From an uncultured Acidobacteriota bacterium (GTDB lineage Bacteria > Acidobacteriota > Terriglobia > UBA7540): a DNA stretch of 64,000 bases. The stretch is from NCBI GenBank assembly GCA_963804995.1, contig CAWDSK010000002.1:608001-672000 (forward strand), given 5' to 3'. This document shows positions 5,116 through 18,096 of this stretch, one piece after another. The position numbers and the translations under genes were made by a program. A model generated the notes under the pieces. That model searched no databases. It was not told the origin of the DNA and worked only from the letters and a program-made list of their open reading frames with translations. Positions within the stretch are counted from its first letter, which is position 1. Each line of letters opens with the position of its first letter.

Positions 5116-6507
5116 TCACGACTCAGTGAAATCAATCACGACCGGCTTCTCGCGGAACCAGTTCGTCTTAAAGCCCAGGTAGATGAGTCCGATTGTGAAC
5201 CAGACTCCGCCCACGATTTTTGCCACGATATTCAGGTTGAGCCAGATCCAGCCGCAAAACACAAAGCCGAAGAGCGGAAGAATGATATCTCCGAGGGGGC
5301 TGATTTTGCGGCCGGTGGCGCGCTTGACGCCGAACTGCCAGAAGGTGGCAAAATTAACTCCCATGAAGGCGATGAAAGCGCCGAAGTTCAGTAACTCCGC
5401 GGCGTTCTCATAGCCATGTCCGTTCATGGAAATGCCGATTCCGCCGGCGAGAGCGAGGATGGAAACGATCCAGATATTGTAATTGGGCGTGTTGCGTTTC
5501 GGATGGAGGTGCCCGAAGATTTTCCGGGGCAGAACATTGTCGCGCCCCATGCCGAAAAGCAAGCGCGCGGCCCCCAAGCCTCCGGTAAGCGCGCTGCCTG
5601 TCCCAGCGAGAATCGTCACCGCAGTCATGCTGAGAAACAGCCAGCGCCCCCCGACTCGCATGCAGACATCCATAAACGCGCCGGTAATGTTTTCAAAATG
5701 ATAGCCCGGCCACACCCGTTGCCCCAAGTAGACCTCAACGCTGCTGAAAATACCGGTAAACAAGCAGACCAGAACCGTGGCCAGGAGCACATTCCGCTTG
5801 GGATTCACCACATCCTCGGCCAGGGTCGTGACGCCGTCAAATCCGATGTAGGTGAGCGCGGCCAGCGGCACGGCGGCGCGGATGATCCGGTAGTCAAAGG
5901 TTTGGGGATCGTAAAAGGGCAGCGTGGAAAAAAGGCCATCCCAACCATCCAGGTGGAAAAGGTAGCGGATGGCCAGGAGCACAAATGCCGCGATGACCAC
6001 CGACATGAAGAGAAGAAGCAACTTGTTGGCCAGGGCGCTGGCGCGGATTCCGCGCAAATTCAGTATGGTCACAATCCCTATAAACAGCAGCATCATCGCG
6101 TAGGTTGGAATCCAGTGCACCCAGCCGTGGATGGTTTCCGCCACCCACACGGCGTTGAGCAGGGGTTGCAGCAGATAATCAAGAATCATCGCCCACCCGA
6201 CCAGGAATCCCAGGTGGAGATTGATGCCGCGACCCACATAGGTGTATGCCGATCCGGCCGAGGGATACAGAGCCGCCATGCGCCCGTAACTGAACGCGGT
6301 GATCATCATGGCGAACATCGCAATCAGGATGGTGTCTACAATGTAGCCGTGGGATTTTTCCTGGACAACGCCGAAGAGCGGAACGGGCGCGATCGGCTGG
6401 ATCAGGATGATGCCGTAGAAAATCAGATCCCACAGAGTCAGTACGCGGCGCAAGCGCGGCGCTGCCGCCGATCCATTCGCCTGCCCGGAAGGTTTTGCGT
6501 CGCCCAT
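5116..6507 (-). CDS. APC family amino acid/polyamine permease (PuuP-like)
   Basis: About 12 TM segments; PSAGSAYTY and YIGFDGVTTLAED motifs. Confidence 0.9.
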   Translation of the reverse strand: MGDAKPSGQANGSAAAPRLRRVLTLWDLIFYGIILIQPIAPVPLFGVVQEKSHGYIVDTILIAMFAMMITAFSYGRMAALYPSAGSAYTYVGRGINLHLGFLVGWAMILDYLLQPLLNAVWVAETIHGWVHWIPTYAMMLLFIGIVTILNLRGIRASALANKLLLLFMSVVIAAFVLLAIRYLFHLDGWDGLFSTLPFYDPQTFDYRIIRAAVPLAALTYIGFDGVTTLAEDVVNPKRNVLLATVLVCLFTGIFSSVEVYLGQRVWPGYHFENITGAFMDVCMRVGGRWLFLSMTAVTILAGTGSALTGGLGAARLLFGMGRDNVLPRKIFGHLHPKRNTPNYNIWIVSILALAGGIGISMNGHGYENAAELLNFGAFIAFMGVNFATFWQFGVKRATGRKISPLGDIILPLFGFVFCGWIWLNLNIVAKIVGGVWFTIGLIYLGFKTNWFREKPVVIDFTES

Positions 6508-6611
6508 AATGATAGTTGTCCTCTCGTTCGCCCCGAGCCAGCCGGAAGCTTCTCTGAAAAGCCAGCCAGTATCTCACGAGTGGGTTGGATGGTAAACGCG
6601 AATCTCCGTTC

Positions 6612-6721
6612 GGTAACGGTTCAGTTTGATGTAGAGGCGGCGGCATTCATCCCGATCTTATCGGGACGCCGCCATATGGCGAGGTGAACTCGCCGCTACA
6701 AGATCAAACTGAACCACTACC
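6612..6721. repeat. MITE-like unit: TIR-flanked REP doublet
   Basis: Ends GGTAACGGTTCAGTTTGA / TCAAACTGAACCACTACC enclose GTAGAGGCGGC...CGCCGCTAC. Confidence 0.8.
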
Positions 6722-7529
6722 CTCCGTTCGGGAGTAGATCCATTCGGGAAACCAGAGCCGTGGGAGGATGGTTTCGGAGTGCGCCGTCGCTCGCCCATAG
6801 CTTCGGATTGCCCCTAAGGCAAAGCCCATAAACAAAAGGCGACAAGGCGGAGCAATTTCCCAGAACCCCGTTTGGACTCTCCCGCTGTCCGACCGCTTTC
6901 TCGTCGGCGCGCTTCCGATACAGCACTAACGTTTCGAGAGATGTGAACGGGACGGGCCATTTTTCCGGTTTGGCGACTATACATCCAAGTGACGAGAACG
7001 ATTTTGATTTTTCCCACTGTCATGGCAGAGCGTTTTTCGCTCCCAATCCTGTGAACTACCCACTCGGCAAAGTTTTCGGGCCCACCGGACACAATCGCCG
7101 AAGGTGACTGGATAAACTATATGTACAGTTTGCCAACCACCCAGCCAATTCGTCCACGCGATTGACGTTGCGCCGGCTCCTTACCTCTATGGTCCCGGAA
7201 CATCCCGGCGCGTCCCGCTCTAGTCCTCGGTTACGGCGGCTCGAACCGGGCAAAATGAGTGCCTCGGAGGCAGGATGGCTTCGTTAACAGCGCGGTACCC
7301 ACTCCGAGTAAAATCCCGCATGGTTGATCAGGGAAAAGCCCCATTGCGCACAACTTGGAGGATACATAGGTTCGGAACAAGCTGCTCTCCCTTACAGGGA
7401 CCCGACGGATTGTCTGGTCAGGGAAAGGGAAATGTATAAACCATCAACACAGGGCGCTAATTGTGACCCGGACCGGGCGGCTTTCCGCACAGAGACCGCC
7501 GCTCTCGATGCCCATTGGGGCGTATGCTC

Positions 7530-7546
7530 TTGGCACGTCGTGTGCA
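7530..7546 (+). promoter_or_regulatory. Putative sigma-54 (-24/-12) promoter
   Basis: TTGGCACGtcgtgTGCA with exact GG-N10-GC spacing, one mismatch to TGGCACGNNNNTTGC. Confidence 0.6.
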
Positions 7547-7782
7547 GTTTCACCATAGCGGTTGCTGAATTATGCAACTCCTCAGAGAGCGTGAGCCTCA
7601 TGTGGGAGTACGTTCATCGCGTTGCAGCCAGACTTGCTGTCCCCTCGACGGAAATCTCACAAAGAAAAACGCGACGTTTAGAAGCTTGCGGAACCTCAGA
7701 GGTGTTACTCCACGAAGCGACGGGAAGAGGGCGGATAAAACCCACCCCGGTGCCTATTCGCGGCCTCACTAAGGAGCGCACC

Positions 7783-10700
7783 ATGCGTTCGCCACGCTTA
7801 GCGTTCATCGCGATTCTTGCTTTCGCATTCATATGCCCCCCATCGTTATGGGCGAAGGAGAAATCCGGATATGGGATTGGCTCCTTTGCGAAGTACGTGC
7901 AGATTGCAGGCGCCACGCGGGTAGGTTCTGATACGTGTGTGCGGTGTCATGACCACGTGGCCAATGATTTCAGGCACGCGTTCCACGCCCAGCAAGGGGT
8001 GGAATGCGAGGACTGCCACGGCCCCGGAAGCCTGCACGTGGACGGCAATGGGGACGTGGCCAAGATCATCGAATTTCGTTCCCGGCCAGTCAAGGATGCC
8101 AATGGCGTTTGCCTAAGCTGCCACATCCAGAATGCGGGGGTCCGACACTGGGTGGCTGGCCCCCACGAGGCGAACAGCGTTCGATGCACGGATTGTCACC
8201 AAGTCCACGCCGCAGCCGCGCCGGGCCCGACGCCGCCCCGAATGAATTTTGACACAGCTTCCCCGGGCCACACCACGTTCGTTGAGAAATTCGTGCCGGA
8301 AAGTGGTGTGATGATGGAACGGCGGTCCGCGATAAACGATGCCTGCCTGAAGTGCCATCAGGCACAACGCGCCCAAATGCAACTTCCTTACCACCACCCG
8401 CTGCGCGAGGGAAAGCTCGACTGCGTAGATTGCCACGACCCGCATGGTGGCCCGGCGGGTAACAACCTGCGGATGGCCAATGCCAATCAACTCTGCCTGA
8501 GCTGCCACGCGCAGTACCGCGGCCCGTTCATGTACCAGCATCCTCCCGTGAATGAGAACTGCATGAATTGCCACACCCCGCACGGCTCGGCCAACACGAA
8601 TCTTCTGACCTTGAGCGAACCGGCGTTGTGTTTGCAGTGCCACATCGGCCACCACGATGGGGCCGGGTTACCCCTGGTGGACCGATGCACAGATTGTCAC
8701 AACACGATCCATGGCTCCGACGTGCCCACCGCCACCGGCGGCAGCAGATTCCTTGACAAAGGCGGAAATGGGGTGCCCAGCCTTCCTCCGCAACCGGCGA
8801 TGGCTCAGGGGTTGAACTCGCAGCGTGTCAGGGCCGCTCTGGCGCCGGTCGCCGCTCACAATCCGATGATGCTTCGAACCCGAATTCCGCAACTTCTGGC
8901 CGCCCCTCCGCCGGCTGGAACCTTCTCGGCAGGGCACCTGTCTCCCGTACCATCTCATTCTCCGGTTATGAACCTGGCGGGGATGGCATTTCCCGGGGCG
9001 CTCGCTGCCTCGCTAGGAACCTTCCCGGGCGGGATGTCGGCGATGATGGGCGGGCTCCCGGATTCCGCCCAGGCTCCCAACAGCTACTGGGGCCTGTATT
9101 TCACTCCCGGTGCTTATCGGTTCAAAAATGTGACGGGATACGGCGGCCGGGTGGGAGAGTACGACAGCCTTCAGTCTTCGGAAGGCGGTGACTTCGAAGG
9201 GGATTACGTTTCCTTGCCTCACCACCTGAGCCTGCTCACGCGCGGCACGGTTCTGACCGGTTCAGATTTTGACTTCAAATCGCGACTGACGATGGGCGAC
9301 AGCCTGGAAGTCGGAGCTGACCTGCGGAGCTTTGTGGAGCAACAGGATGATTATCCGTTCCTCTCCTCGACCATCTCTCCGGACATCACGGTCTCTGACG
9401 GCATCACCCCGGGAACCGTCTTCGGGGTGAAGAGGAGAATGGGCAACGCTTACGCCCGCGTGAAGGTACCGAAGTGGCCTGTGCATTTGTTTGTCAAGGG
9501 AAGCTGGCAGGCCAGGGTCGGCGAATGCCAGCTCAGGTATTTGGATGAGAACATCAATACCTCTTGCGGTATGACCTGCCACTATAATTCGCAGTTTCAG
9601 CGGCTGAACTACACCACGCGCGACCTGGGCGGCGGGGTGGAAGTGAACGCGCACGGGTTGGCCCTGACCTACGAGCATGATTACAGCAGCTTCAATGACC
9701 GGCTGCCGTTCCCGGTTGGCCAGTATGGCCCCATGCTGAACAAGGACGAGCCCGGTCCGGTTTTTGTGCCGGACACCCCCGCCGGCAACTATTATCTCTC
9801 CATCCCCTCTCCCAGCCGCTACTCAGCGGATCTGCTGAGCGTGAACTGGACAGCTTCACCCAAGCTGATTTTCAACGGCCAGGCCACCTACCGCCGCACA
9901 CGCGACATATTCACCAACAACCCTCAGAATGGGTTCGATGCGGATACAACCCTGAGCTGGCACCCCCACGACCGTTTACGCATCACCGGTGATTACCGCC
10001 AGCAGAACCTCGTGAATGGCTTCGTTCCTTACTACGCATTATTCGGCAACATGTCCTACCATCAGTACTGGGCAGGCCTAAAAGGCGATTATGAGTTATG
10101 GGGCCATCTTAACCTGGAGACCGAATATCATCACGCTGGCATCACGCGCTCCAACGCCTTCCTGTGGCCTCAAATCTACTCCTTTGATAACACGGACAAG
10201 CTACCGGTCGTCGCCTCCTCATCCAGCAACAAGACGGGTGTGGCATTGCACTACCACTCGAGTGGCCACTTGAATGGGCGTGCGGGCTACGAATGGACTG
10301 GTACCCACAACCCTGGCTACTTGATCGTTCCCCTGAATAACAACCGAATTTTTGGGGACGTTACCCTCACGCCGGCGCGCTGGCTGGCCTTTACCAACGA
10401 TACCAGCCTCAACGTGCAGAACGGCTTCCAGTTGATTCAACGCCGTGATCGTTTCTATGCCGAGACGGCAAGCGCGACCCTAACCCCCGTGCCCTTTTGG
10501 ACGCTGGCTCTCGGATATTCGTACCAGCAGGACAATCTTGCCACGTACATGGGCTTCCAACACGACACTGTAGCCGGCTATGTTATAGACGAACCCTTCG
10601 TCCCCTTCCGCCAGCTCAGCCAAACCTATTGGGTTCAATCTGGGTACAAATTAAAGGATCGCTTCGGACTGAACCTGTCGCTCGCGCACAGCTCGGCACA

Positions 10701-11007
10701 TAGCGGAATGCGGCCGGACGTAAACCCAAACGACTACTTGCTGTTAGGCAACGGGCCACTTGTGCAGGACGGCACTTTCCTCCCGGACGTTTTCCAGCAG
10801 GCCCTGACGCAAGGGCTCGCCTACGGAGCACAGGCAACGCAGGTCGACGTGCCCCAGTTCATTGGTCAAGGCAAAGTCTACTATTTACTGCCACACGGAC
10901 TTGACGCGGGCGTCCTCCTCTATTACGGCAGCTATCGGGATTACACCAATCCGAGCCTGAATGGAATCCTCCGGTCGTACAGTATCTACTTCGGCCGCTC
11001 CTGGTAA
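7783..11007 (+). CDS. DmsE/MtrA-family decaheme c-type cytochrome fused to an MtrB/PioB-like outer-membrane beta-barrel (1074 aa)
   Basis: AAGGAG SD then MRSPRL signal peptide; 10 CxxCH motifs; HHPLREG, CxDCHDPHG, GPFMYQHPPV and IHGS signatures; ~100-aa Pro/Ala linker; ~640-aa aromatic beta-strand-rich domain ending YSIYFGRSW. Confidence 0.88.
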   Translation: MRSPRLAFIAILAFAFICPPSLWAKEKSGYGIGSFAKYVQIAGATRVGSDTCVRCHDHVANDFRHAFHAQQGVECEDCHGPGSLHVDGNGDVAKIIEFRSRPVKDANGVCLSCHIQNAGVRHWVAGPHEANSVRCTDCHQVHAAAAPGPTPPRMNFDTASPGHTTFVEKFVPESGVMMERRSAINDACLKCHQAQRAQMQLPYHHPLREGKLDCVDCHDPHGGPAGNNLRMANANQLCLSCHAQYRGPFMYQHPPVNENCMNCHTPHGSANTNLLTLSEPALCLQCHIGHHDGAGLPLVDRCTDCHNTIHGSDVPTATGGSRFLDKGGNGVPSLPPQPAMAQGLNSQRVRAALAPVAAHNPMMLRTRIPQLLAAPPPAGTFSAGHLSPVPSHSPVMNLAGMAFPGALAASLGTFPGGMSAMMGGLPDSAQAPNSYWGLYFTPGAYRFKNVTGYGGRVGEYDSLQSSEGGDFEGDYVSLPHHLSLLTRGTVLTGSDFDFKSRLTMGDSLEVGADLRSFVEQQDDYPFLSSTISPDITVSDGITPGTVFGVKRRMGNAYARVKVPKWPVHLFVKGSWQARVGECQLRYLDENINTSCGMTCHYNSQFQRLNYTTRDLGGGVEVNAHGLALTYEHDYSSFNDRLPFPVGQYGPMLNKDEPGPVFVPDTPAGNYYLSIPSPSRYSADLLSVNWTASPKLIFNGQATYRRTRDIFTNNPQNGFDADTTLSWHPHDRLRITGDYRQQNLVNGFVPYYALFGNMSYHQYWAGLKGDYELWGHLNLETEYHHAGITRSNAFLWPQIYSFDNTDKLPVVASSSSNKTGVALHYHSSGHLNGRAGYEWTGTHNPGYLIVPLNNNRIFGDVTLTPARWLAFTNDTSLNVQNGFQLIQRRDRFYAETASATLTPVPFWTLALGYSYQQDNLATYMGFQHDTVAGYVIDEPFVPFRQLSQTYWVQSGYKLKDRFGLNLSLAHSSAHSGMRPDVNPNDYLLLGNGPLVQDGTFLPDVFQQALTQGLAYGAQATQVDVPQFIGQGKVYYLLPHGLDAGVLLYYGSYRDYTNPSLNGILRSYSIYFGRSW

Positions 11008-11413
11008 ATCCGCTCCTTTTTCCGCAGGGCGAAGGGAGCAAGGTAGGGGGCATCATTTAGTTCGGCGCTGGCAGGGGATTTGGCCTGGAAGTCGCCTTCG
11101 AGGAAGCTTGGGGTGGCACTGCACTCGCTGGGATAGACCGCGCACGTCGTAGGGTGAAGCAAAGTCGCTCAACTCCTGCATCTTCGCCAAATCAGAAGTG
11201 ATCGAAGATTCGCCTTTCAAATTGGCCCTCCGCCCCAGGCCGAGACGCTGTGAAGAATCCTGCTGTAGCGTCCCGATTTATCGGGACAACGCCGGTCCCA
11301 GCCCCGCACGCACGGGATTCAACTATTCCAAGGGCTCACGTTTTTTTTCATCAAGGCACGAATCCACGGTAGAGCCCTGGGAGAAAAAACCAACTGTGAC
11401 CTCCTAAAATGAG

Positions 11414-11640
11414 GGTGGGTTTGAGGTGGCACGGCCCACCTGCCCCGATCCATCGGGGTCTTGGCCGTGACTGGGCGCGGGCGGGAGAAGGTGTGAAAAA
11501 ATCGTCTAGAACCTTCTTACCGCAGAGGCGCTGAGGCGCAGAGGAATGAAAATAAAGGTCCTTTTCTCTGCGCCTCCGCGGTAAGAATACTATTTCTTCA
11601 CACCTTCGGCTGCCCGTGGCACCTCAAAATAAGTCGCGGC
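11414..11640. mobile_element. Composite nested REP/MITE, copy 1 (copy 2 at 42568-42806)
   Basis: GTGGCACGGC...GCCCGTGGCAC REP interrupted by an inner element with TIRs GAAGGTGTGAAAAAAT / ATTTCTTCACACCTTC (11487-11607). Confidence 0.8.
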
Positions 11641-11747
11641 CTGAGGTTGCGGGGGTGGATTTCTAGGAGCACGACACCTTATTATGGAGAGCCCAGCGTC
11701 ACGAGGCATCGCTGGATTCTCCTCTTTTTTCATGGGAGGCCCTCCGG

Positions 11748-13262
11748 TTGTCGAACCCACGCTTGCACTTCATCTTGACGGCCCACACTTGGATACGGCT
11801 GGCGAGGACTTTCCAGACCCTGACCGCTTTTCGAAAGATCATTCGTGCCGCGGCACGTGTCTTGATGCTCGCCGGGACAGCCCACCTGTGGTGCGTGCTA
11901 TCCTTGGCGCAGGACGATGCTCTTTCGCGGCCCGTCTATCAGAACCTGCGACAGAACGAGGATTGGTCGGTATTGGCGAACCCCGGAGGAGTTCAGGGTC
12001 ACGACTTCTTCGATCCCATTAAATACATTCCCCTGACCGACGATGGCTCGATTTGGCTGAGCCTGGGAGGCCAGGTTCGCGAACGGGTGGAGAACTGGAA
12101 CGAGTTCAATTTTGGAGCCCCGATTACGGCTGTCCATGACGACACGTTTCTTTATTCACGGCTGATGTGGCACGCGGATCTGCACCTGGGGTCAGTCGTC
12201 CGCATCTTCCTGCAAGAACGGAGCGCCTTTTCGACTCATCGGTCGCTCACCGGCGGCGTCAAAGGAAATGTGGACGAACTGGATTTCGAAAACGCTTTTA
12301 TTGATGTGAAAGTTCCGGTCTCCGAAAGTGCCCGGCTCACGCTGCGCGCCGGAGAGCAGGAAATTGCCTTTGGGAGGGAGAGGTTTGTCGGTGCGTCGGA
12401 TTGGACGAATACCCGGCGGACGTGGTACGGCTTTTCAGGAATCCTGGATTCGGGAAAATCCAACCTTACGTTTTTCTGGGGGCGTCCCGTTCGAATAACA
12501 GAATATCATTTCAATCCTCCTGATTCCGGAACGCAGCTCTATGGGCTGGATTTCAATCGCAAGCTGCCCGCGCCCTGGGGAAACTTGGAGTTGTATTGGT
12601 ACGGGTTGAATAACCGGTCCGCGACTTACGACGGGACAACCGGCCCGGAGAACCGGCACACCTTTGGCGGGCGCAATCTGAACCAGATTGGCAACTCGGG
12701 CTTCGATTATGACTTGGAGGGAAACGTCCAAGTCGGCTCATTGGGAATGCGCAGCATCCGAGCGGGCTCAATCGCGCCCCAGTTGGGCTATACCGTGCGC
12801 AAGATCCGGGGTACTCCCCGCTTCTATTTCGGTAGCGACTATGCGAGCGGCGGCCATCCAGGCACAGGTAGTGTGGGATCCTTCAACGTGCTGTTCCCGA
12901 CTTCGCATGACACTCTGGGCTACGCCGACATCGTGGGCCGGGAGAACGTGATCGATTTGAACGGAGGCGTGGGCGTTAACCCGGCCCGTAAGTGGAAGGT
13001 TCGCCTCAACACCTACTCCTATTGGCGCGCTTCGACAAGCGATGCCTTTTATGATAAGCGTGGCGCGGTCATCCGGGCGGCCAGCCTTGGCACCGCGAGA
13101 AAAACGGGAGCGGAAGCGGACTTGACAGTCCGATACCAGCATGACGTTCATACCGTCATCCAACTTGGGTACAGCCACTTCTTCCCCGGACCGTTTGTGC
13201 TGCAGTCAGGCCCTCACGAGCCCGTGGATTTCCTCTATACCTTTCTTCAGTTCACATTTTGA
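11748..13262 (+). CDS. Alginate export (AlgE-like) family outer-membrane porin
   Basis: RQNEDWS..DPIKYIPL..LSLGGQVRER N-terminus, LRAGEQE..GRERFVG motif, C-terminal FTF; start uncertain (ATG at 11865 possible). Confidence 0.8.
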   Translation: MSNPRLHFILTAHTWIRLARTFQTLTAFRKIIRAAARVLMLAGTAHLWCVLSLAQDDALSRPVYQNLRQNEDWSVLANPGGVQGHDFFDPIKYIPLTDDGSIWLSLGGQVRERVENWNEFNFGAPITAVHDDTFLYSRLMWHADLHLGSVVRIFLQERSAFSTHRSLTGGVKGNVDELDFENAFIDVKVPVSESARLTLRAGEQEIAFGRERFVGASDWTNTRRTWYGFSGILDSGKSNLTFFWGRPVRITEYHFNPPDSGTQLYGLDFNRKLPAPWGNLELYWYGLNNRSATYDGTTGPENRHTFGGRNLNQIGNSGFDYDLEGNVQVGSLGMRSIRAGSIAPQLGYTVRKIRGTPRFYFGSDYASGGHPGTGSVGSFNVLFPTSHDTLGYADIVGRENVIDLNGGVGVNPARKWKVRLNTYSYWRASTSDAFYDKRGAVIRAASLGTARKTGAEADLTVRYQHDVHTVIQLGYSHFFPGPFVLQSGPHEPVDFLYTFLQFTF

Positions 13263-14893: not shown

Positions 14894-15774
14894 ATGATCG
14901 ACGAGCCTCGTGAGCCAAACCCGGAGACGCCCGAAGCGGGAGGCCCTGCGGAAGCAGCGCTTCCAGCCGCCAAGCGCGTTTCTCACGGCACGGCGCCGCC
15001 TCCGCCCATCAAGCTGGCGGCTTACGAAGGCCCCCTTGACCTGTTGCTCGACCTGATCCGCAAGCAGCAGGTTAATATCTATGACATCCCCATCGCCAGG
15101 ATCACGCAACAATATCTCAACTATCTCCACATGATGGAGGAGTTGAACATCGACGTGGCCGGTGAATTTATTTTCATGGCGGCCACGCTTATCTACATCA
15201 AATCGCGGATGCTGTTGCCCGTCGACCCCACGGCTCCCCCGAGGAGCAGGAAGATCCGCGTGCCGAACTCGTCCACCGGCTGCTTGAGCACGAGCAGTTC
15301 AAGAATGCTGCGGAAATGCTGAACTCCAAGCGCATGGTGGAAGACGCCATGTGGTCGCAGGCCGGCATCGGCGAATTTGCGGAGGCGGAAGACGAGCCGG
15401 GGATCGCGGTGTCAGTATTTGATCTGATTTCCGTGTTCCGGGAAATTCTGGAACGCGCCAAGAAACGGACCCAGATTCAGATCAAGCGGGAAGAAGTCAG
15501 TGTGGCGCAGATGGTCGAGCACGTGAAGCAAGTGCTACGCCGCAGCTCCGGGCCCGTTCCCATTGAGGACCTGATTGGTGATTTCCTCTGGCGGCAGGCA
15601 CTGATTGCTCTGTTCCTGGCGCTGCTCGAACTGGTGCGGCTGCGTGCCGTATTGCTCCGGCAGAAGGACCTCTTCACACCCATCACCGTGGCGAAGAGCC
15701 GTAGGTTTGATGAAATCCTCACGGCCACAACCGCGCAGGAATTGGCGGCAGGTTTGGATGAAAGTTTTAGCTAG
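14894..15774 (+). CDS. scpA: Segregation/condensation protein ScpA (frameshift near 15236-15240)
   Basis: [22 protein letters not shown] and FLALLELVR motifs; adding one C to the CCCCC run restores [23 protein letters not shown]. Confidence 0.9.
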
Positions 15775-15873: not shown

Positions 15874-16734
15874 GTGACGAACATTCTGAAGGCCCTCATC
15901 GAGGGCATCATCTATGTGGCGCCGGAGCCGGTCCCGCTGGACGTGATCTTGAAAACCCTGGAAGGCGAGGAGCGCGAGCGGATAAAAGCCAAGCTCGAAG
16001 AGTTGGTCGCCGATTACGAGCAGAACCAGCACGGCATTCAGATCAGGCAGGTGGCGAGCGGTTACAAGTTCTCAACCAAGGCTGAGCACCACGAAGTATT
16101 GCGGAAATATGTGAAGAGCTTGAAGCCACCGGTACGACTTTCGAAGCCGGCGCTCGAAACGCTGGCGGTCATCGCCTACCGGCAGCCCGTGACGCTCCCG
16201 GAAATCGAGGAGATTCGCGGCGTGGACACAGGCGGCGTCATCCACACGCTGATGGAAAAGAAGTTGGTGGTGACGGCGGGGCGGAAGAGCGTGGTAGGGC
16301 GGCCAATTCTCTACCGCACTTCGCGCGACTTCCTGGTGCACTTCGGATTGAAGGATGTGGGGGAGCTTCCCAGCCTGAAGGAATTCGAGGAGCTGGCCAA
16401 GCGCGCGCTGGGCTCCGAGTGGGCTGCGGAAGCACAAGCCGCCGGCCTCGAACCCGCGCCGGCTGCAATTGCGGAGCCTTCTGACTCAACGGCTGGAGAA
16501 GCTTCAGCGCCGACGGTCACGGAACCCGCGACTTCAACCGGAACGGAGACCGCTCCCGAACCAAGCGAGAAAGCGGTAGCACCGGCGAGCGAATCCACCG
16601 CTGCAGAGCCGGCCGCACCCAGTGAAGAAAATGCTTTACCACCTGCAGAACCCGCCCCTTCCTCCGCAGAGGGAGCCGCGTCCGGGGAGAATCAGGAAGG
16701 AACAGCTCCGGCAAGCGAATCGACTGAGAACTGA
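15874..16734 (+). CDS. scpB: SMC-Scp complex subunit ScpB with acidic Pro/Ala tail
   Basis: LSKPALETLAVIAYRQPVT..IEEIRGV and GRPILY..FLVHFGL motifs. Confidence 0.95.
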   Translation: MTNILKALIEGIIYVAPEPVPLDVILKTLEGEERERIKAKLEELVADYEQNQHGIQIRQVASGYKFSTKAEHHEVLRKYVKSLKPPVRLSKPALETLAVIAYRQPVTLPEIEEIRGVDTGGVIHTLMEKKLVVTAGRKSVVGRPILYRTSRDFLVHFGLKDVGELPSLKEFEELAKRALGSEWAAEAQAAGLEPAPAAIAEPSDSTAGEASAPTVTEPATSTGTETAPEPSEKAVAPASESTAAEPAAPSEENALPPAEPAPSSAEGAASGENQEGTAPASESTEN

Positions 16735-16756
16735 AATCAGACTTCGGACCCTATCT

Positions 16757-17480
16757 ATGCAACAGCGCCTTCAGAAGATCATTGCTGACGCCGGGCTTAC
16801 TTCGCGCCGCAAGGCCGAACAGATAATTCTGGAAGGCCGTGTCAGCGTCAACGGTGAAGTGGTCAGCAAGCTTGGATCAAAGGCCGATCCCGACCGCGAC
16901 AAAATCCGCGTGGACGGCCGCCTCATGAAGCCGGTCACCCAGCACGTCTATCTGCTGCTCAACAAACCCGTGGGTTACGTCTCTACGGTCAGCGACCCGG
17001 AGCATCGGCCCACGGTGATGACTCTGGTGCGCGGAATCAAGGAGCGGGTCTATCCGGTGGGAAGACTGGACTATCACTCCTCGGGCTTGATGATTCTGAC
17101 CAACGACGGCGAGCTGGCGAATTTTCTGATGTCGGCCGCTTCGGCTATCCCCAGAACCTATCAGGTGAAACTGCCGGGTTCCCCGCAGGCCTGCCGAGCT
17201 TGCCAAACTGCAAAGCGGCATGGTCCTCAACGGACGCCGGACAGCGCCCTGCCAGATCCGCCCCCTTGCTCAAAGCGACAGACCCTGGTATGAAATCACG
17301 CTTGTCGAGGGCCGCTACCACCAGGTTCGGCGCATGTTCGAGCGCATCGGACAACCGGTGGTAAAGTTAAAGCGGGTGGGGATCGCGTTCCTCACTGACC
17401 ATGGCCTTGGGCCGGGCCGGTTTCGCCACCTGACACGAGCTGAAGTTGAGCGGTTGAAAAGCTGGAAGGGGACAAAGTAG
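16757..17480 (+). CDS. rluB: rRNA pseudouridine synthase RluB/RsuA family (frameshift near 17188)
   Basis: S4 domain RLQKIIADAGLTSRRKAE, VGRLD catalytic motif, EGRYHQVRRMF in the shifted frame; follows scpAB. Confidence 0.88.
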
Positions 17481-17685
17481 GGAAAGTCCAAGTCCCTTCT
17501 TGTGTAGGGTCCACACCTCCCCCAGACTCCACGCCGCGATCTTCCATTCACGACTTCCTTCCGCCCTGGTCTTCGTGCTGCCCTCCCCGGTGAGGCTTGG
17601 CATGCGTTGAAGGAAACTTCCGACCTCGCTAAACTATGAGGTCACCCAACCATTGGCTTCAAGACAGCTGTCGAGGGTGGTGTTA

Positions 17686-18096
17686 ATGGTTGACTCAATC
17701 AAGGAAATCCTCGAGCACGGCAAGACGCTGGCGGTGGTGGGTCTTTCGTCGAAAGTCATGCGCCCAAGCCACGGCGTAGCGGAATATATGCAGAGCCACG
17801 GATATCGGATCATTCCCGTGAACCCGCATGAGGAATCAGTTTTGGGTGAGAAGGGATATGCCTCACTCGACGAAGTCCCGGAGACTGTCGACATCGTGGT
17901 GATTTTCCGTCGTCCGGAGTTCGTGCCGGAAGTTGTGGAAGCCGCAATTCGCAAGGGCGCGAAGGTGGTGTGGATGCAAGAAGGTGTGATCCACGAGGGA
18001 GCTGCGGAGACCGCTCGCCGAGCGGGTCTCGATGTCGTCATGGACCGCTGCATTCTGAAAGAACACGCCAAACGATTTGTAACCGAAGGGATTTAA
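17686..18096 (+). CDS. CoA-binding protein (YccU-like)
   Basis: AVVGLS, GYRIIPVNP, VWMQEG and VVMDRC motifs. Confidence 0.93.
   Translation: MVDSIKEILEHGKTLAVVGLSSKVMRPSHGVAEYMQSHGYRIIPVNPHEESVLGEKGYASLDEVPETVDIVVIFRRPEFVPEVVEAAIRKGAKVVWMQEGVIHEGAAETARRAGLDVVMDRCILKEHAKRFVTEGI

Follow-up and report, generated by a model that had tools for sequence, protein, structure and literature searches.

A gene joining a decahaem cytochrome to an outer-membrane barrel in Terriglobia probably encodes a one-chain porin-cytochrome conduit

On the forward strand of a 64-kb window of an uncultured acidobacterium (the whole stretch analysed, positions 608001-672000 of contig C2 in genome G000, a 7.55-Mb assembly of nine contigs; coordinates are window positions unless a contig is named) lies a gene at 7783..11007 in which a decahaem c-type cytochrome is fused to an outer-membrane beta-barrel. 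Its 1074 codons plus stop translate without an internal stop, and we consider it probable that this single gene does encode a porin-cytochrome conduit of the MtrAB type. The stop-to-stop frame extends upstream to 7324; the ATG at 7783, preceded by a Shine-Dalgarno sequence AAGGAG six bases 5' of it (7771..7776, +, read from the sequence), yields a standard Sec-type signal peptide (MRSPRLAFIAILAFAFICPPSLWA/KEK; aa 1-24; 7783..7854, +), modelled by AlphaFold2 (AF2) with a helix at residues 4-17 and presumably cleaved after LWA. The single uninterrupted open reading frame (ORF) and the signal peptide had both been noted in a preliminary description of this stretch, and both stand. Rfam gave no matches over 6400-11900 at E-values up to 0.1, and promoter and terminator scans found no signals above shuffle expectation.

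Residues 25-326 (7855..8760, +) make up a cytochrome domain of the MtrA/DmsE/OmcK kind. It scores 206.1 bits against TIGR03508, the DmsE/MtrA decahaem family, above that model's cut-off of 192.2, and has the ten CxxCH motifs in about 300 residues expected of that family. A regular-expression count returned exactly ten, starting at aa 52, 75, 110, 135, 188, 214, 238, 260, 283 and 302 and spanning C52 to H306 (7936..8700, +). All ten are invariant across 65 aligned homologues; this alignment, A1, is the source of the invariance counts given below and of the input to the profile search and to AF2. The A1 profile matches solved MtrA (6R2Q chain A) at E 1.2e-50, which together with the TIGR03508 score bears out the DmsE/MtrA-like assignment made earlier.

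Between the two domains runs a low-complexity linker rich in Ala, Pro, Gly and Ser (aa 327-433; 8761..9081, +), recognised by its composition and by pLDDT values below 50. Its 107 residues (19 Ala, 17 Pro, 13 Gly, 11 Leu, 9 Ser, 8 Met) contain neither a stop nor a second signal peptide, in agreement with the linker of about 100 residues proposed at the outset. Mean identity to homologues is 28% in the linker versus 68% in the cytochrome domain and 60% in the barrel, and linker length varies from 63 to 124 residues (median 81) across the 65 homologues; three conserved islands, DKGPxGVP, PVPSHxP and PLSGG, stand inside it. The stretch just before the barrel, ...LPDSAQAPNS, resembles the signal-peptidase region ...LPCAAQAPAPGS of relatives in which cytochrome and barrel are separate genes, a weak hint that the linker may derive from the former signal peptide of a barrel gene. 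Public DNA contig sets (three peat metagenomes and one freshwater, with 0.06-0.12 of the sampled words) contained only short pieces of relatives at 90% likeness, none of them across 8863-9078 and none with a reported indel.

For the C-terminal domain (aa 434-1074; 9082..11004, +), whole-chain AF2 modelling with the 65-sequence alignment (mean pLDDT 61.9, pTM 0.67) gave a confident barrel over residues 434-1072, mostly in blocks at pLDDT 70-90. DSSP divides it into 27 beta segments, of which 5 are short and 22 are long. Foldseek against the PDB returned MtrB (6R2Q chain B) as the best match (E 1.3e-17; TM score 0.68, normalised by target length; 8% identity), and VIA-align placed model residues 433-1074 on residues 48-695 of the same chain with Z 20.8 and a root-mean-square deviation of 3.0 A over 547 of 649 residues, followed by a TonB-dependent receptor at Z 15.3. 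NF041027, the NCBIfam model named GSU2204 family CXXCH-containing (seleno)protein, matched aa 440-655 at E 5e-15. The earlier proposal of a C-terminal beta-barrel had been staked on such modelling, and it came through. C-terminal aromatic strands serve recognition by the beta-barrel assembly machinery (BAM) in outer-membrane proteins generally. Here the final ~640 residues finish with ...YFGRSW, and the last strand with its terminal aromatic (GILRSYSIYFGRSW; 10963..11004, +; AF2 strand 1061-1072) is the presumed BAM signal. A whole-protein search of 5.8 billion clustered proteins gave 414 matches; among the best 120, which we examined, Trp, Phe or Tyr is the terminal residue in 119.

The barrel carries a further motif, CGMTCH (CX3CH; aa 595-600; 9565..9582, +), which tips the hairpin of strands 567-589 and 599-623 and which we regard as a candidate eleventh haem-binding site. 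The preliminary count of exactly ten CxxCH is right for the ten at aa 52-306 and missed this one. All 65 aligned homologues keep C595, C599 and H600 unchanged, and a strict pattern (C-X2-4-C-H, an aromatic residue, any residue, Ser) recurs in 100 of the best 120 of the 414 matches, 73 as CX3CH and 27 as CX2CH. The spacing flips among the nearest relatives: P0001 has CGMTCH, and P0004, P0007, P0010 and P0018 have CxxCH, with the two Cys and the His retained throughout. Two-gene relatives at 30-46% identity keep the motif, as do most barrels at 22-36% identity in the forms CX2CH, CX3CH, CX4CH and, once, CX8CH; it is absent from 5 of 43 retrieved relatives, all distant (P0213, P0219, P0221, P0248, P0255). 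A triad that stays fixed while its spacing varies fits haem c attachment better than a redox CXXC.

The model places CGMTCH in the turn joining the two longest strands (567-589, 23 residues; 599-623, 25 residues) on the long-loop face, and the adjoining residues 584-587 and 601 belong to the modelled interface with the cytochrome. That position, at a long-loop hairpin tip with neighbours in the interface, would put an eleventh haem at the cell surface, at or beyond the level of haem 10, and we consider such a haem c site probable. CGMTCH also falls within the stretch matched by NF041027 and conforms to the Cys-Xn-Cys-His expected of the GSU2204 family. The genome encodes CcmE and four CcmF/CcmC/CcsA-type genes, and the cytochrome c maturation (Ccm) system can mature CX3CH sites. 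In the openly accessible text we covered, the NCBIfam family name is the only mention of a haem on an MtrB-like barrel. P0207 (783 aa), a remote relative in the barrel family at 28% identity, has an N-terminal monohaem cytochrome c domain (CAVCH) as well as the barrel motif CATCH and is, as read from its sequence, a third type of fusion between cytochrome and barrel within the superfamily.

The fusion is widespread enough to be judged a genuine gene and not a joined pair. Among the best 120 of the 414 matches, at identities of 51-83%, 119 are at least 1000 residues long and 118 have at least ten CxxCH within their first 420 residues; a single local alignment spans 96-100% of the query in 115, cover being lower in four (59-61%) and in the 924-aa P0016 (86%). 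At 83% identity, P0002 from a separate assembly can be aligned in frame across the whole linker, one 8-residue insertion apart. A scan of contigs from one genome per species found 113 relatives, of which 80 loci were retained, almost all in metagenome-assembled genomes (MAGs) labelled Terriglobia, Terriglobales, Acidobacteriaceae, Ca. Sulfotelmatobacter, Ca. Acidiferrum, Granulicella or Terracidiphilus, with one Nitrospirae. Both domains stand in one frame at most of these loci, and several genomes have two copies. The concern that every relative might be encoded by two genes can thus be laid aside, and the question left open earlier, whether such fusions are already in databases, has a clear answer: they are numerous there, labelled 'cytochrome c3 family protein' or similar. 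The fused decahaem-barrel form appears to be common in the lineage and in databases, yet undescribed.

Some apparent exceptions dissolved on inspection. L016, L029, L036, L048, L068 and L074 were rejected as two-gene forms since their frame changes lie within domains, as in broken or mis-assembled copies. Two of them come from the peat MAG SbA1 (OMOD01), where the fused copies L016 and L068 each have one frame change (at about aa 451-468 and about aa 287-293, respectively), by assembly error or decay. Twelve short barrel-only close matches begin within the linker without a signal peptide and are therefore truncated gene calls. To place the fusion within its class we used a sample of 301 genomes spread evenly over the window's class (five of them unpublished, none of these among the ten with an intact fusion). 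Some match was present in 253 of the 301, mostly to separate decahaem genes, and an intact single-frame copy of both domains in ten: six in the window's own family (G000, G065, G242, G202, G154, G004) and four in three other families (G158, G269, G273, G046). Broken further copies occur in G227 and as a second copy in G242. Two-gene decahaem-plus-barrel modules are far commoner than fusions in the class; long frames beside decahaem matches in G099, G252, G078 and G153, considered as further fusions, turned out to be such ordinary modules.

True two-gene relatives in Terriglobia, L072 and L073, differ in structure from any broken fusion: the cytochrome gene stops straight after ...GGSKFIDK, and a separate signal peptide opens the barrel gene, with the same two conserved N-terminal strands about 17 residues past it. 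We built a FastTree phylogeny of the barrel domain from 42 rows (every third of the 65 alignment rows, 22 in all, plus 15 further family members and 5 distant barrels; midpoint root). The main clade contains 24 fused rows and P0134, a truncated call without a signal peptide, and its sister is the split group P0126/L072/L073. Fused forms occupy a second place in the tree as the pair P0133 and P0137, whose sister is the split P0136. The midpoint-rooted tree requires no fewer than three label changes, one of which is the P0134 artefact, and two independent fusions would be the simplest reading. A MAG labelled Candidatus Dormiibacterota, DASQGJ01, contains both a fused locus (L039, ~51% identity) and the two-gene L073 (41%), so fused and split forms can coexist in one bin; this phylum label clashes with those of all other relatives, so its contigs may be mis-binned.

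To ask how the two halves might fit together, we modelled residues 30-330 and residues 432-1074 as two independent chains without haems, giving each its own slice of the alignment. The interface score ipSAE was 0.91 in all three runs, with about 500 contacts, versus 0.00 for the best of three controls; run agreement was at least 72% of contacts and partner pLDDT at least 76. The mark for this score is reached by 116 of 157 solved complexes and by 2 of 215 mismatched pairs. The model supports nesting of the cytochrome inside its own barrel with MtrA-like polarity. On the cytochrome, the interface is dense at aa 155-322 and sparse at aa 30-150; MtrA sits in MtrB with its N-terminus reaching into the periplasm and its C-terminal half hydrogen-bonded to MtrB and facing outward, and MtrB has tight periplasmic turns and long surface loops, according to PMC7198977. 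We assigned the membrane side of the loops from the lowest-error residue pairs, the AF2 strand list and this tight-turn/long-loop rule. Cytochrome residues 193-197 pair with barrel residues 895, 913 and 948, 7-9 residues above the tight turns; 206-211 with 460, 517 and 551, 9-10 residues above; 243-248 with 612, 637, 708 and 713, 11-13 residues above; and 277-285 with 921-925 and 940-942, 15-19 residues above. In the model, then, the contacts seem to climb the barrel monotonically in sequence order.

Several known systems frame this architecture. Like MtrAB of the Shewanella MtrCAB complex (6R2Q), the protein has an N-terminal domain homologous to MtrA and a C-terminal domain with the MtrB fold, equal to it in modelled polarity and asymmetry and, as in MtrB, with short first barrel strands. 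It differs from MtrAB in being one polypeptide with a 107-residue linker rather than the product of two genes and in having no MtrC-type gene nearby, and from MtrB in its 8% identity, the CX3CH in the barrel and 27 modelled beta segments against 26 strands. By NCBIfam models, the nearest named sequence families of both halves are GSU2203 (OmcK) and GSU2204 of Geobacter sulfurreducens, which are two separate genes there, and the fused protein stays below the cut-offs of both families (232 bits where 325 are required, and 55 where 350 are). Selenoproteins occur among the GSU2204 members; the fused gene has no in-frame TGA. GSU2203 and GSU2204, with consecutive locus numbers, are up-regulated with iron oxides (PMC4070692), and such expression values were all the data we found on the pair; the GSU2204 family is listed as an MtrB/PioB-type outer-membrane barrel in a 2026 review (PMC13188914).

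In Cyc2 and Cyt572 of iron oxidisers, too, an N-terminal c-type cytochrome and a C-terminal outer-membrane barrel share one chain. Cyc2 is described with one haem and a barrel of about 16-17 strands, whereas the fused protein has ten motifs plus one and a barrel of MtrB size, with about 26-27 strands; it is not of the Cyc2 type, sharing with Cyc2 the fused state and nothing else, and no homology to Cyc2 appeared in any sequence search made. The two-gene Terriglobia relatives (L072, L073; P0126-P0143) share its barrel family at 30-46% identity, its N-terminal strands and its haem motif and have an adjacent decahaem gene; in L072 and L073, unlike here, the cytochrome gene stops after ...FIDK and the barrel, which lacks a linker, begins with a separate signal peptide. 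Only the Cyc2 type is named as a porin-cytochrome fusion within the openly accessible text we covered, where we found no fused decahaem barrel. A 2026 preprint (10.64898/2026.05.27.727921) argues that peat Acidobacteriota express multihaem conduits and use extracellular acceptors for anaerobic respiration; its main text describes gene clusters and has no word beginning 'fus', and its supplements could list such genes.

These results suggest how a one-chain conduit might work. After Sec export, the Ccm system (system I) would attach haem to the ten CxxCH motifs and probably to the barrel CX3CH too, and BAM would fold the C-terminal domain into a barrel resembling MtrB, in which about 26-27 strands enclose the cytochrome domain of the same chain. 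The cytochrome would then sit in the lumen with MtrA polarity, its N-terminal haems periplasmic and its C-terminal half tightly held and facing outward, and the barrel haem, at the tip of the longest hairpin on what is presumably the extracellular face, would be the outermost redox centre. Electrons from periplasmic and inner-membrane cytochromes encoded elsewhere could follow the haem chain across the outer membrane to extracellular acceptors, of which Fe(III) or humic and particulate organic matter would be the most plausible in peat and soil. An MtrC-type partner would be unnecessary, and a flexible linker of at least 63 residues, left uncleaved, would guarantee 1:1 stoichiometry and co-assembly. 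We favour outward transfer to such acceptors, by a modest preference, because of the peat and soil origin of the relatives and the argument of the preprint.

A number of observations weigh against this picture and should be set beside it. In the AF2 monomer the cytochrome domain and linker have pLDDT mostly below 60, and below 50 over residues 260-431; the earlier suggestion that the cytochrome threads the barrel has support from the nested two-chain model, for which a like complex has been solved, and not from the monomer. Since the MtrAB structure is among solved ones, the two-chain result may itself reflect learned likeness rather than independent evidence. At the sequence level, Pfam at E-values up to 1 left the barrel domain unmatched, MtrB_PioB included, and returned for the whole protein only cytochrome families and DUF6510. 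NF041027 scores 55-58 bits against a cut-off of 350 and is matched only at profile positions 24-245 of 580, so of the MtrB/PioB-like label given to the barrel earlier, the MtrB fold stands (Z 20.8) and the family assignment does not, the nearest sequence family being GSU2204. The N-terminal domain reaches 232.4 bits against the 325-bit cut-off of NF041028, the GSU2203/OmcK family, and is by this measure a relative, not a member, of it. A search of public runs found no RNA dataset and hence no expression evidence from RNA or reads, and the openly accessible literature yielded no experiment on any family member. Two housekeeping genes nearby are interrupted: scpA is split into the overlapping ORFs 14894-15322 and 15316-15774 (+) by a single-base frameshift, through an assembly indel or as a pseudogene, and the S4/pseudouridine-synthase gene at 16622-17700 (+) changes frame near 17190-17200 in a C-rich run. 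Frameshifts in two such genes within 2.5 kb suggest that single-base indel errors exist in this assembly. Finally, MtrA polarity points the C-terminus of the cytochrome outward, yet a normal barrel begins in the periplasm, a topological difficulty for the path of the linker.

An extra strand could ease this last difficulty. MtrB has 4 short and 22 long strands (PMC7198977). Counted from its C-terminus, our model shows a regular alternation between tight turns (2-5 residues) and longer loops, and on this count the first segment, 434-441, which meets the next by a Thr-Pro-Gly-Ala turn, would run from the outside to the periplasm. The loop contacting cytochrome residues 206-211 comes after segment 2; the capping loop of MtrB comes after strand 1 and lies over MtrA Trp204/Gln206 (PMC7198977). 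This fits an extra first segment that would lead the chain down from the surface, perhaps at the position of the MtrB side channel. Counter to the idea, the split relatives have the same segment, and VIA-align maps residue 433 to MtrB residue 48. Put together, the pieces allow a bolder proposal, doubtful as a whole: a self-sufficient eleven-haem, one-chain wire, in which a surface haem on the barrel would replace the MtrC-type cytochrome, the linker would pass outside or down a side channel, and segment 434-441, connected by a tight Pro-Gly turn to the counterpart of MtrB's first strand, would enter the wall from the extracellular side and give an odd, 27-segment barrel, with the barrel-loop haem common to the whole GSU2204-like superfamily.

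The topology problem would vanish if the fusion existed at the gene level only, the precursor being cut in the linker after export to give a two-chain MtrA/MtrB-like complex and the fusion serving co-expression or co-targeting. A linker of 28% identity and 63-124 residues that is modelled as disordered is a typical protease-accessible segment, and two-gene relatives with a separate barrel signal peptide evidently work. We nevertheless think cleavage unlikely: the linker has no known or conserved cleavage motif, its islands (DKGPxGVP, PVPSHxP, PLSGG) suggest more than a disposable spacer, and at least two independent fusions, with the main fused clade kept over 24 sampled rows, argue that the tether has value. 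Nor is the threaded arrangement seriously challenged by a cytochrome that stays in the periplasm beside a barrel acting as a porin or transporter for other cargo. The low confidence with which the AF2 monomer places the cytochrome would allow it; the ~500 contacts between the domains at ipSAE 0.91 (controls 0.00), the lead of 5 Z units that MtrB has over transporters as structural match and the fact that split barrel-family genes always adjoin decahaem genes make it highly improbable. That an assembly error joined two adjacent genes is more improbable still, to the point of being negligible. Frameshifts in scpA and the pseudouridine synthase 4-6 kb downstream, together with public reads that lack cover over the linker, would be in keeping with such an artefact, but the one-frame architecture recurs in the best 120 of the 414 matches, at most of the 80 loci and in 10 of the 301 class genomes, P0002 reads the linker in frame, and true two-gene relatives have a different structure, with a stop straight after ...FIDK and a new signal peptide.

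Two further alternatives accept a one-chain conduit and concern what it does. The barrel CX2-4CH could be a metal-binding or disulfide motif, leaving ten haems only. MtrB has an N-terminal CXXC, none of the papers found demonstrates a haem c attached to a barrel loop, AF2 puts the motif at a strand-loop junction and not in a helix, and 5 of 43 relatives, distant ones, lack it. We take this possibility seriously while holding it to be the less probable one, as the whole C...C-H triad and not just the Cys pair is invariant in 65 of 65, the His always follows the second Cys at spacings of 2, 3 or 4 residues, which is a haem c signature and not that of a redox CXXC, and NCBI curators named the family 'CXXCH-containing'. 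The conduit could also work inward, taking up electrons by oxidation of Fe(II) or reduced humics like MtoAB and PioAB. The sequence carries no sign of direction, the MTR complex is called bidirectional (PMC8415449), PioAB and MtoAB are described as oxidative (PMC10654088), and in 4-5 of 81 loci the gene has a multicopper oxidase and a chromate transporter in its vicinity. We regard inward flow as a serious alternative, though rather unlikely: the relatives are mostly from peat and soil Terriglobia MAGs, for which the preprint argues for extracellular acceptors (10.64898/2026.05.27.727921), and the nearest named pair, GSU2203/GSU2204, comes from an Fe(III) reducer and is up-regulated with iron oxides (PMC4070692).

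Porin-cytochrome conduits underlie Gram-negative respiration of minerals, humics and electrodes, and to our knowledge all characterised multihaem conduits are multi-gene complexes. A natural one-gene decahaem-in-barrel protein would be the smallest known trans-outer-membrane electron-transfer unit, attractive for transfer to other hosts and for studies of co-assembly between haem proteins and BAM. If the barrel motif is occupied, it would set a redox cofactor at a new position on an outer-membrane barrel and would explain conduits that lack a surface cytochrome. Because the annotation of such genes goes no further than 'cytochrome c3 family' or 'CXXCH protein', surveys built on cytochrome/porin pairs may undercount electron-transfer capacity, which matters for Terriglobia, dominant in peat and acidic soils, habitats in which this kind of respiration is believed to keep methane formation down.

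The surroundings of the gene offer no obvious partner. No other ORF with at least three CxxCH occurs in the 64-kb window, the only such frame there among genome ORFs of at least 80 residues being C2:615324-619007, that of the fused gene, and so the earlier statement that no MtrC- or CymA-type partner lies nearby holds. Upstream, on the opposite strand, are an amino-acid permease, an esterase and a Gfo/Idh/MocA oxidoreductase. Downstream, after 740 bases, comes an Alginate_exp-type barrel, followed by tryptophanyl-tRNA synthetase (TrpRS), ScpA/B and others. The barrel gene (11748-13262, +) encodes a 504-aa outer-membrane protein of the Alginate_exp family (Pfam E 7.7e-69) and stands outside the neighbour clusters common to other loci. 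We compared neighbourhoods by all-against-all clustering of ORFs of at least 110 residues at 81 loci (the 80 relatives and the window). No neighbour cluster was common to more than 8 of the 81, and, self clusters aside, the largest consisted of antisense or alternative-frame ORFs that lie within the gene; next came a beta-propeller protein (8 loci) and the multicopper oxidase and chromate transporter (4-5 of 81 loci, a few kb downstream; L039:13229-15984). A second ORF with at least three CxxCH was flagged at 9 of the 81 loci, or 6 once L011 (a broken main gene) and L079 and L080 (proteobacterial and outside the family) are dropped. With no conserved partner nearby, the conduit looks self-contained at the outer membrane.

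Other multihaem genes are encoded at a distance in the same genome. A two-gene module lies on the minus strand at G000:C1:677062-680790: L081 is a DmsE-family decahaem cytochrome (260.8 bits) 33% identical to the fused one, and L082, a 792-aa ORF about 320 bases after it without an NCBIfam match, is presumably its barrel. FdnI-like segments, of the formate dehydrogenase gamma type, are membrane cytochrome b domains; one occurs in each of L083 (986 aa, 19 CxxCH) and L084 (455 aa, 5 CxxCH), at G000:C2:14309-18740, about 600 kb from the fused gene. L087 and L089, elsewhere in the genome, are multihaem ORFs with NrfH-like N-termini. These four, L083, L084, L087 and L089, are candidate inner-membrane or periplasmic multihaem partners of the conduit.

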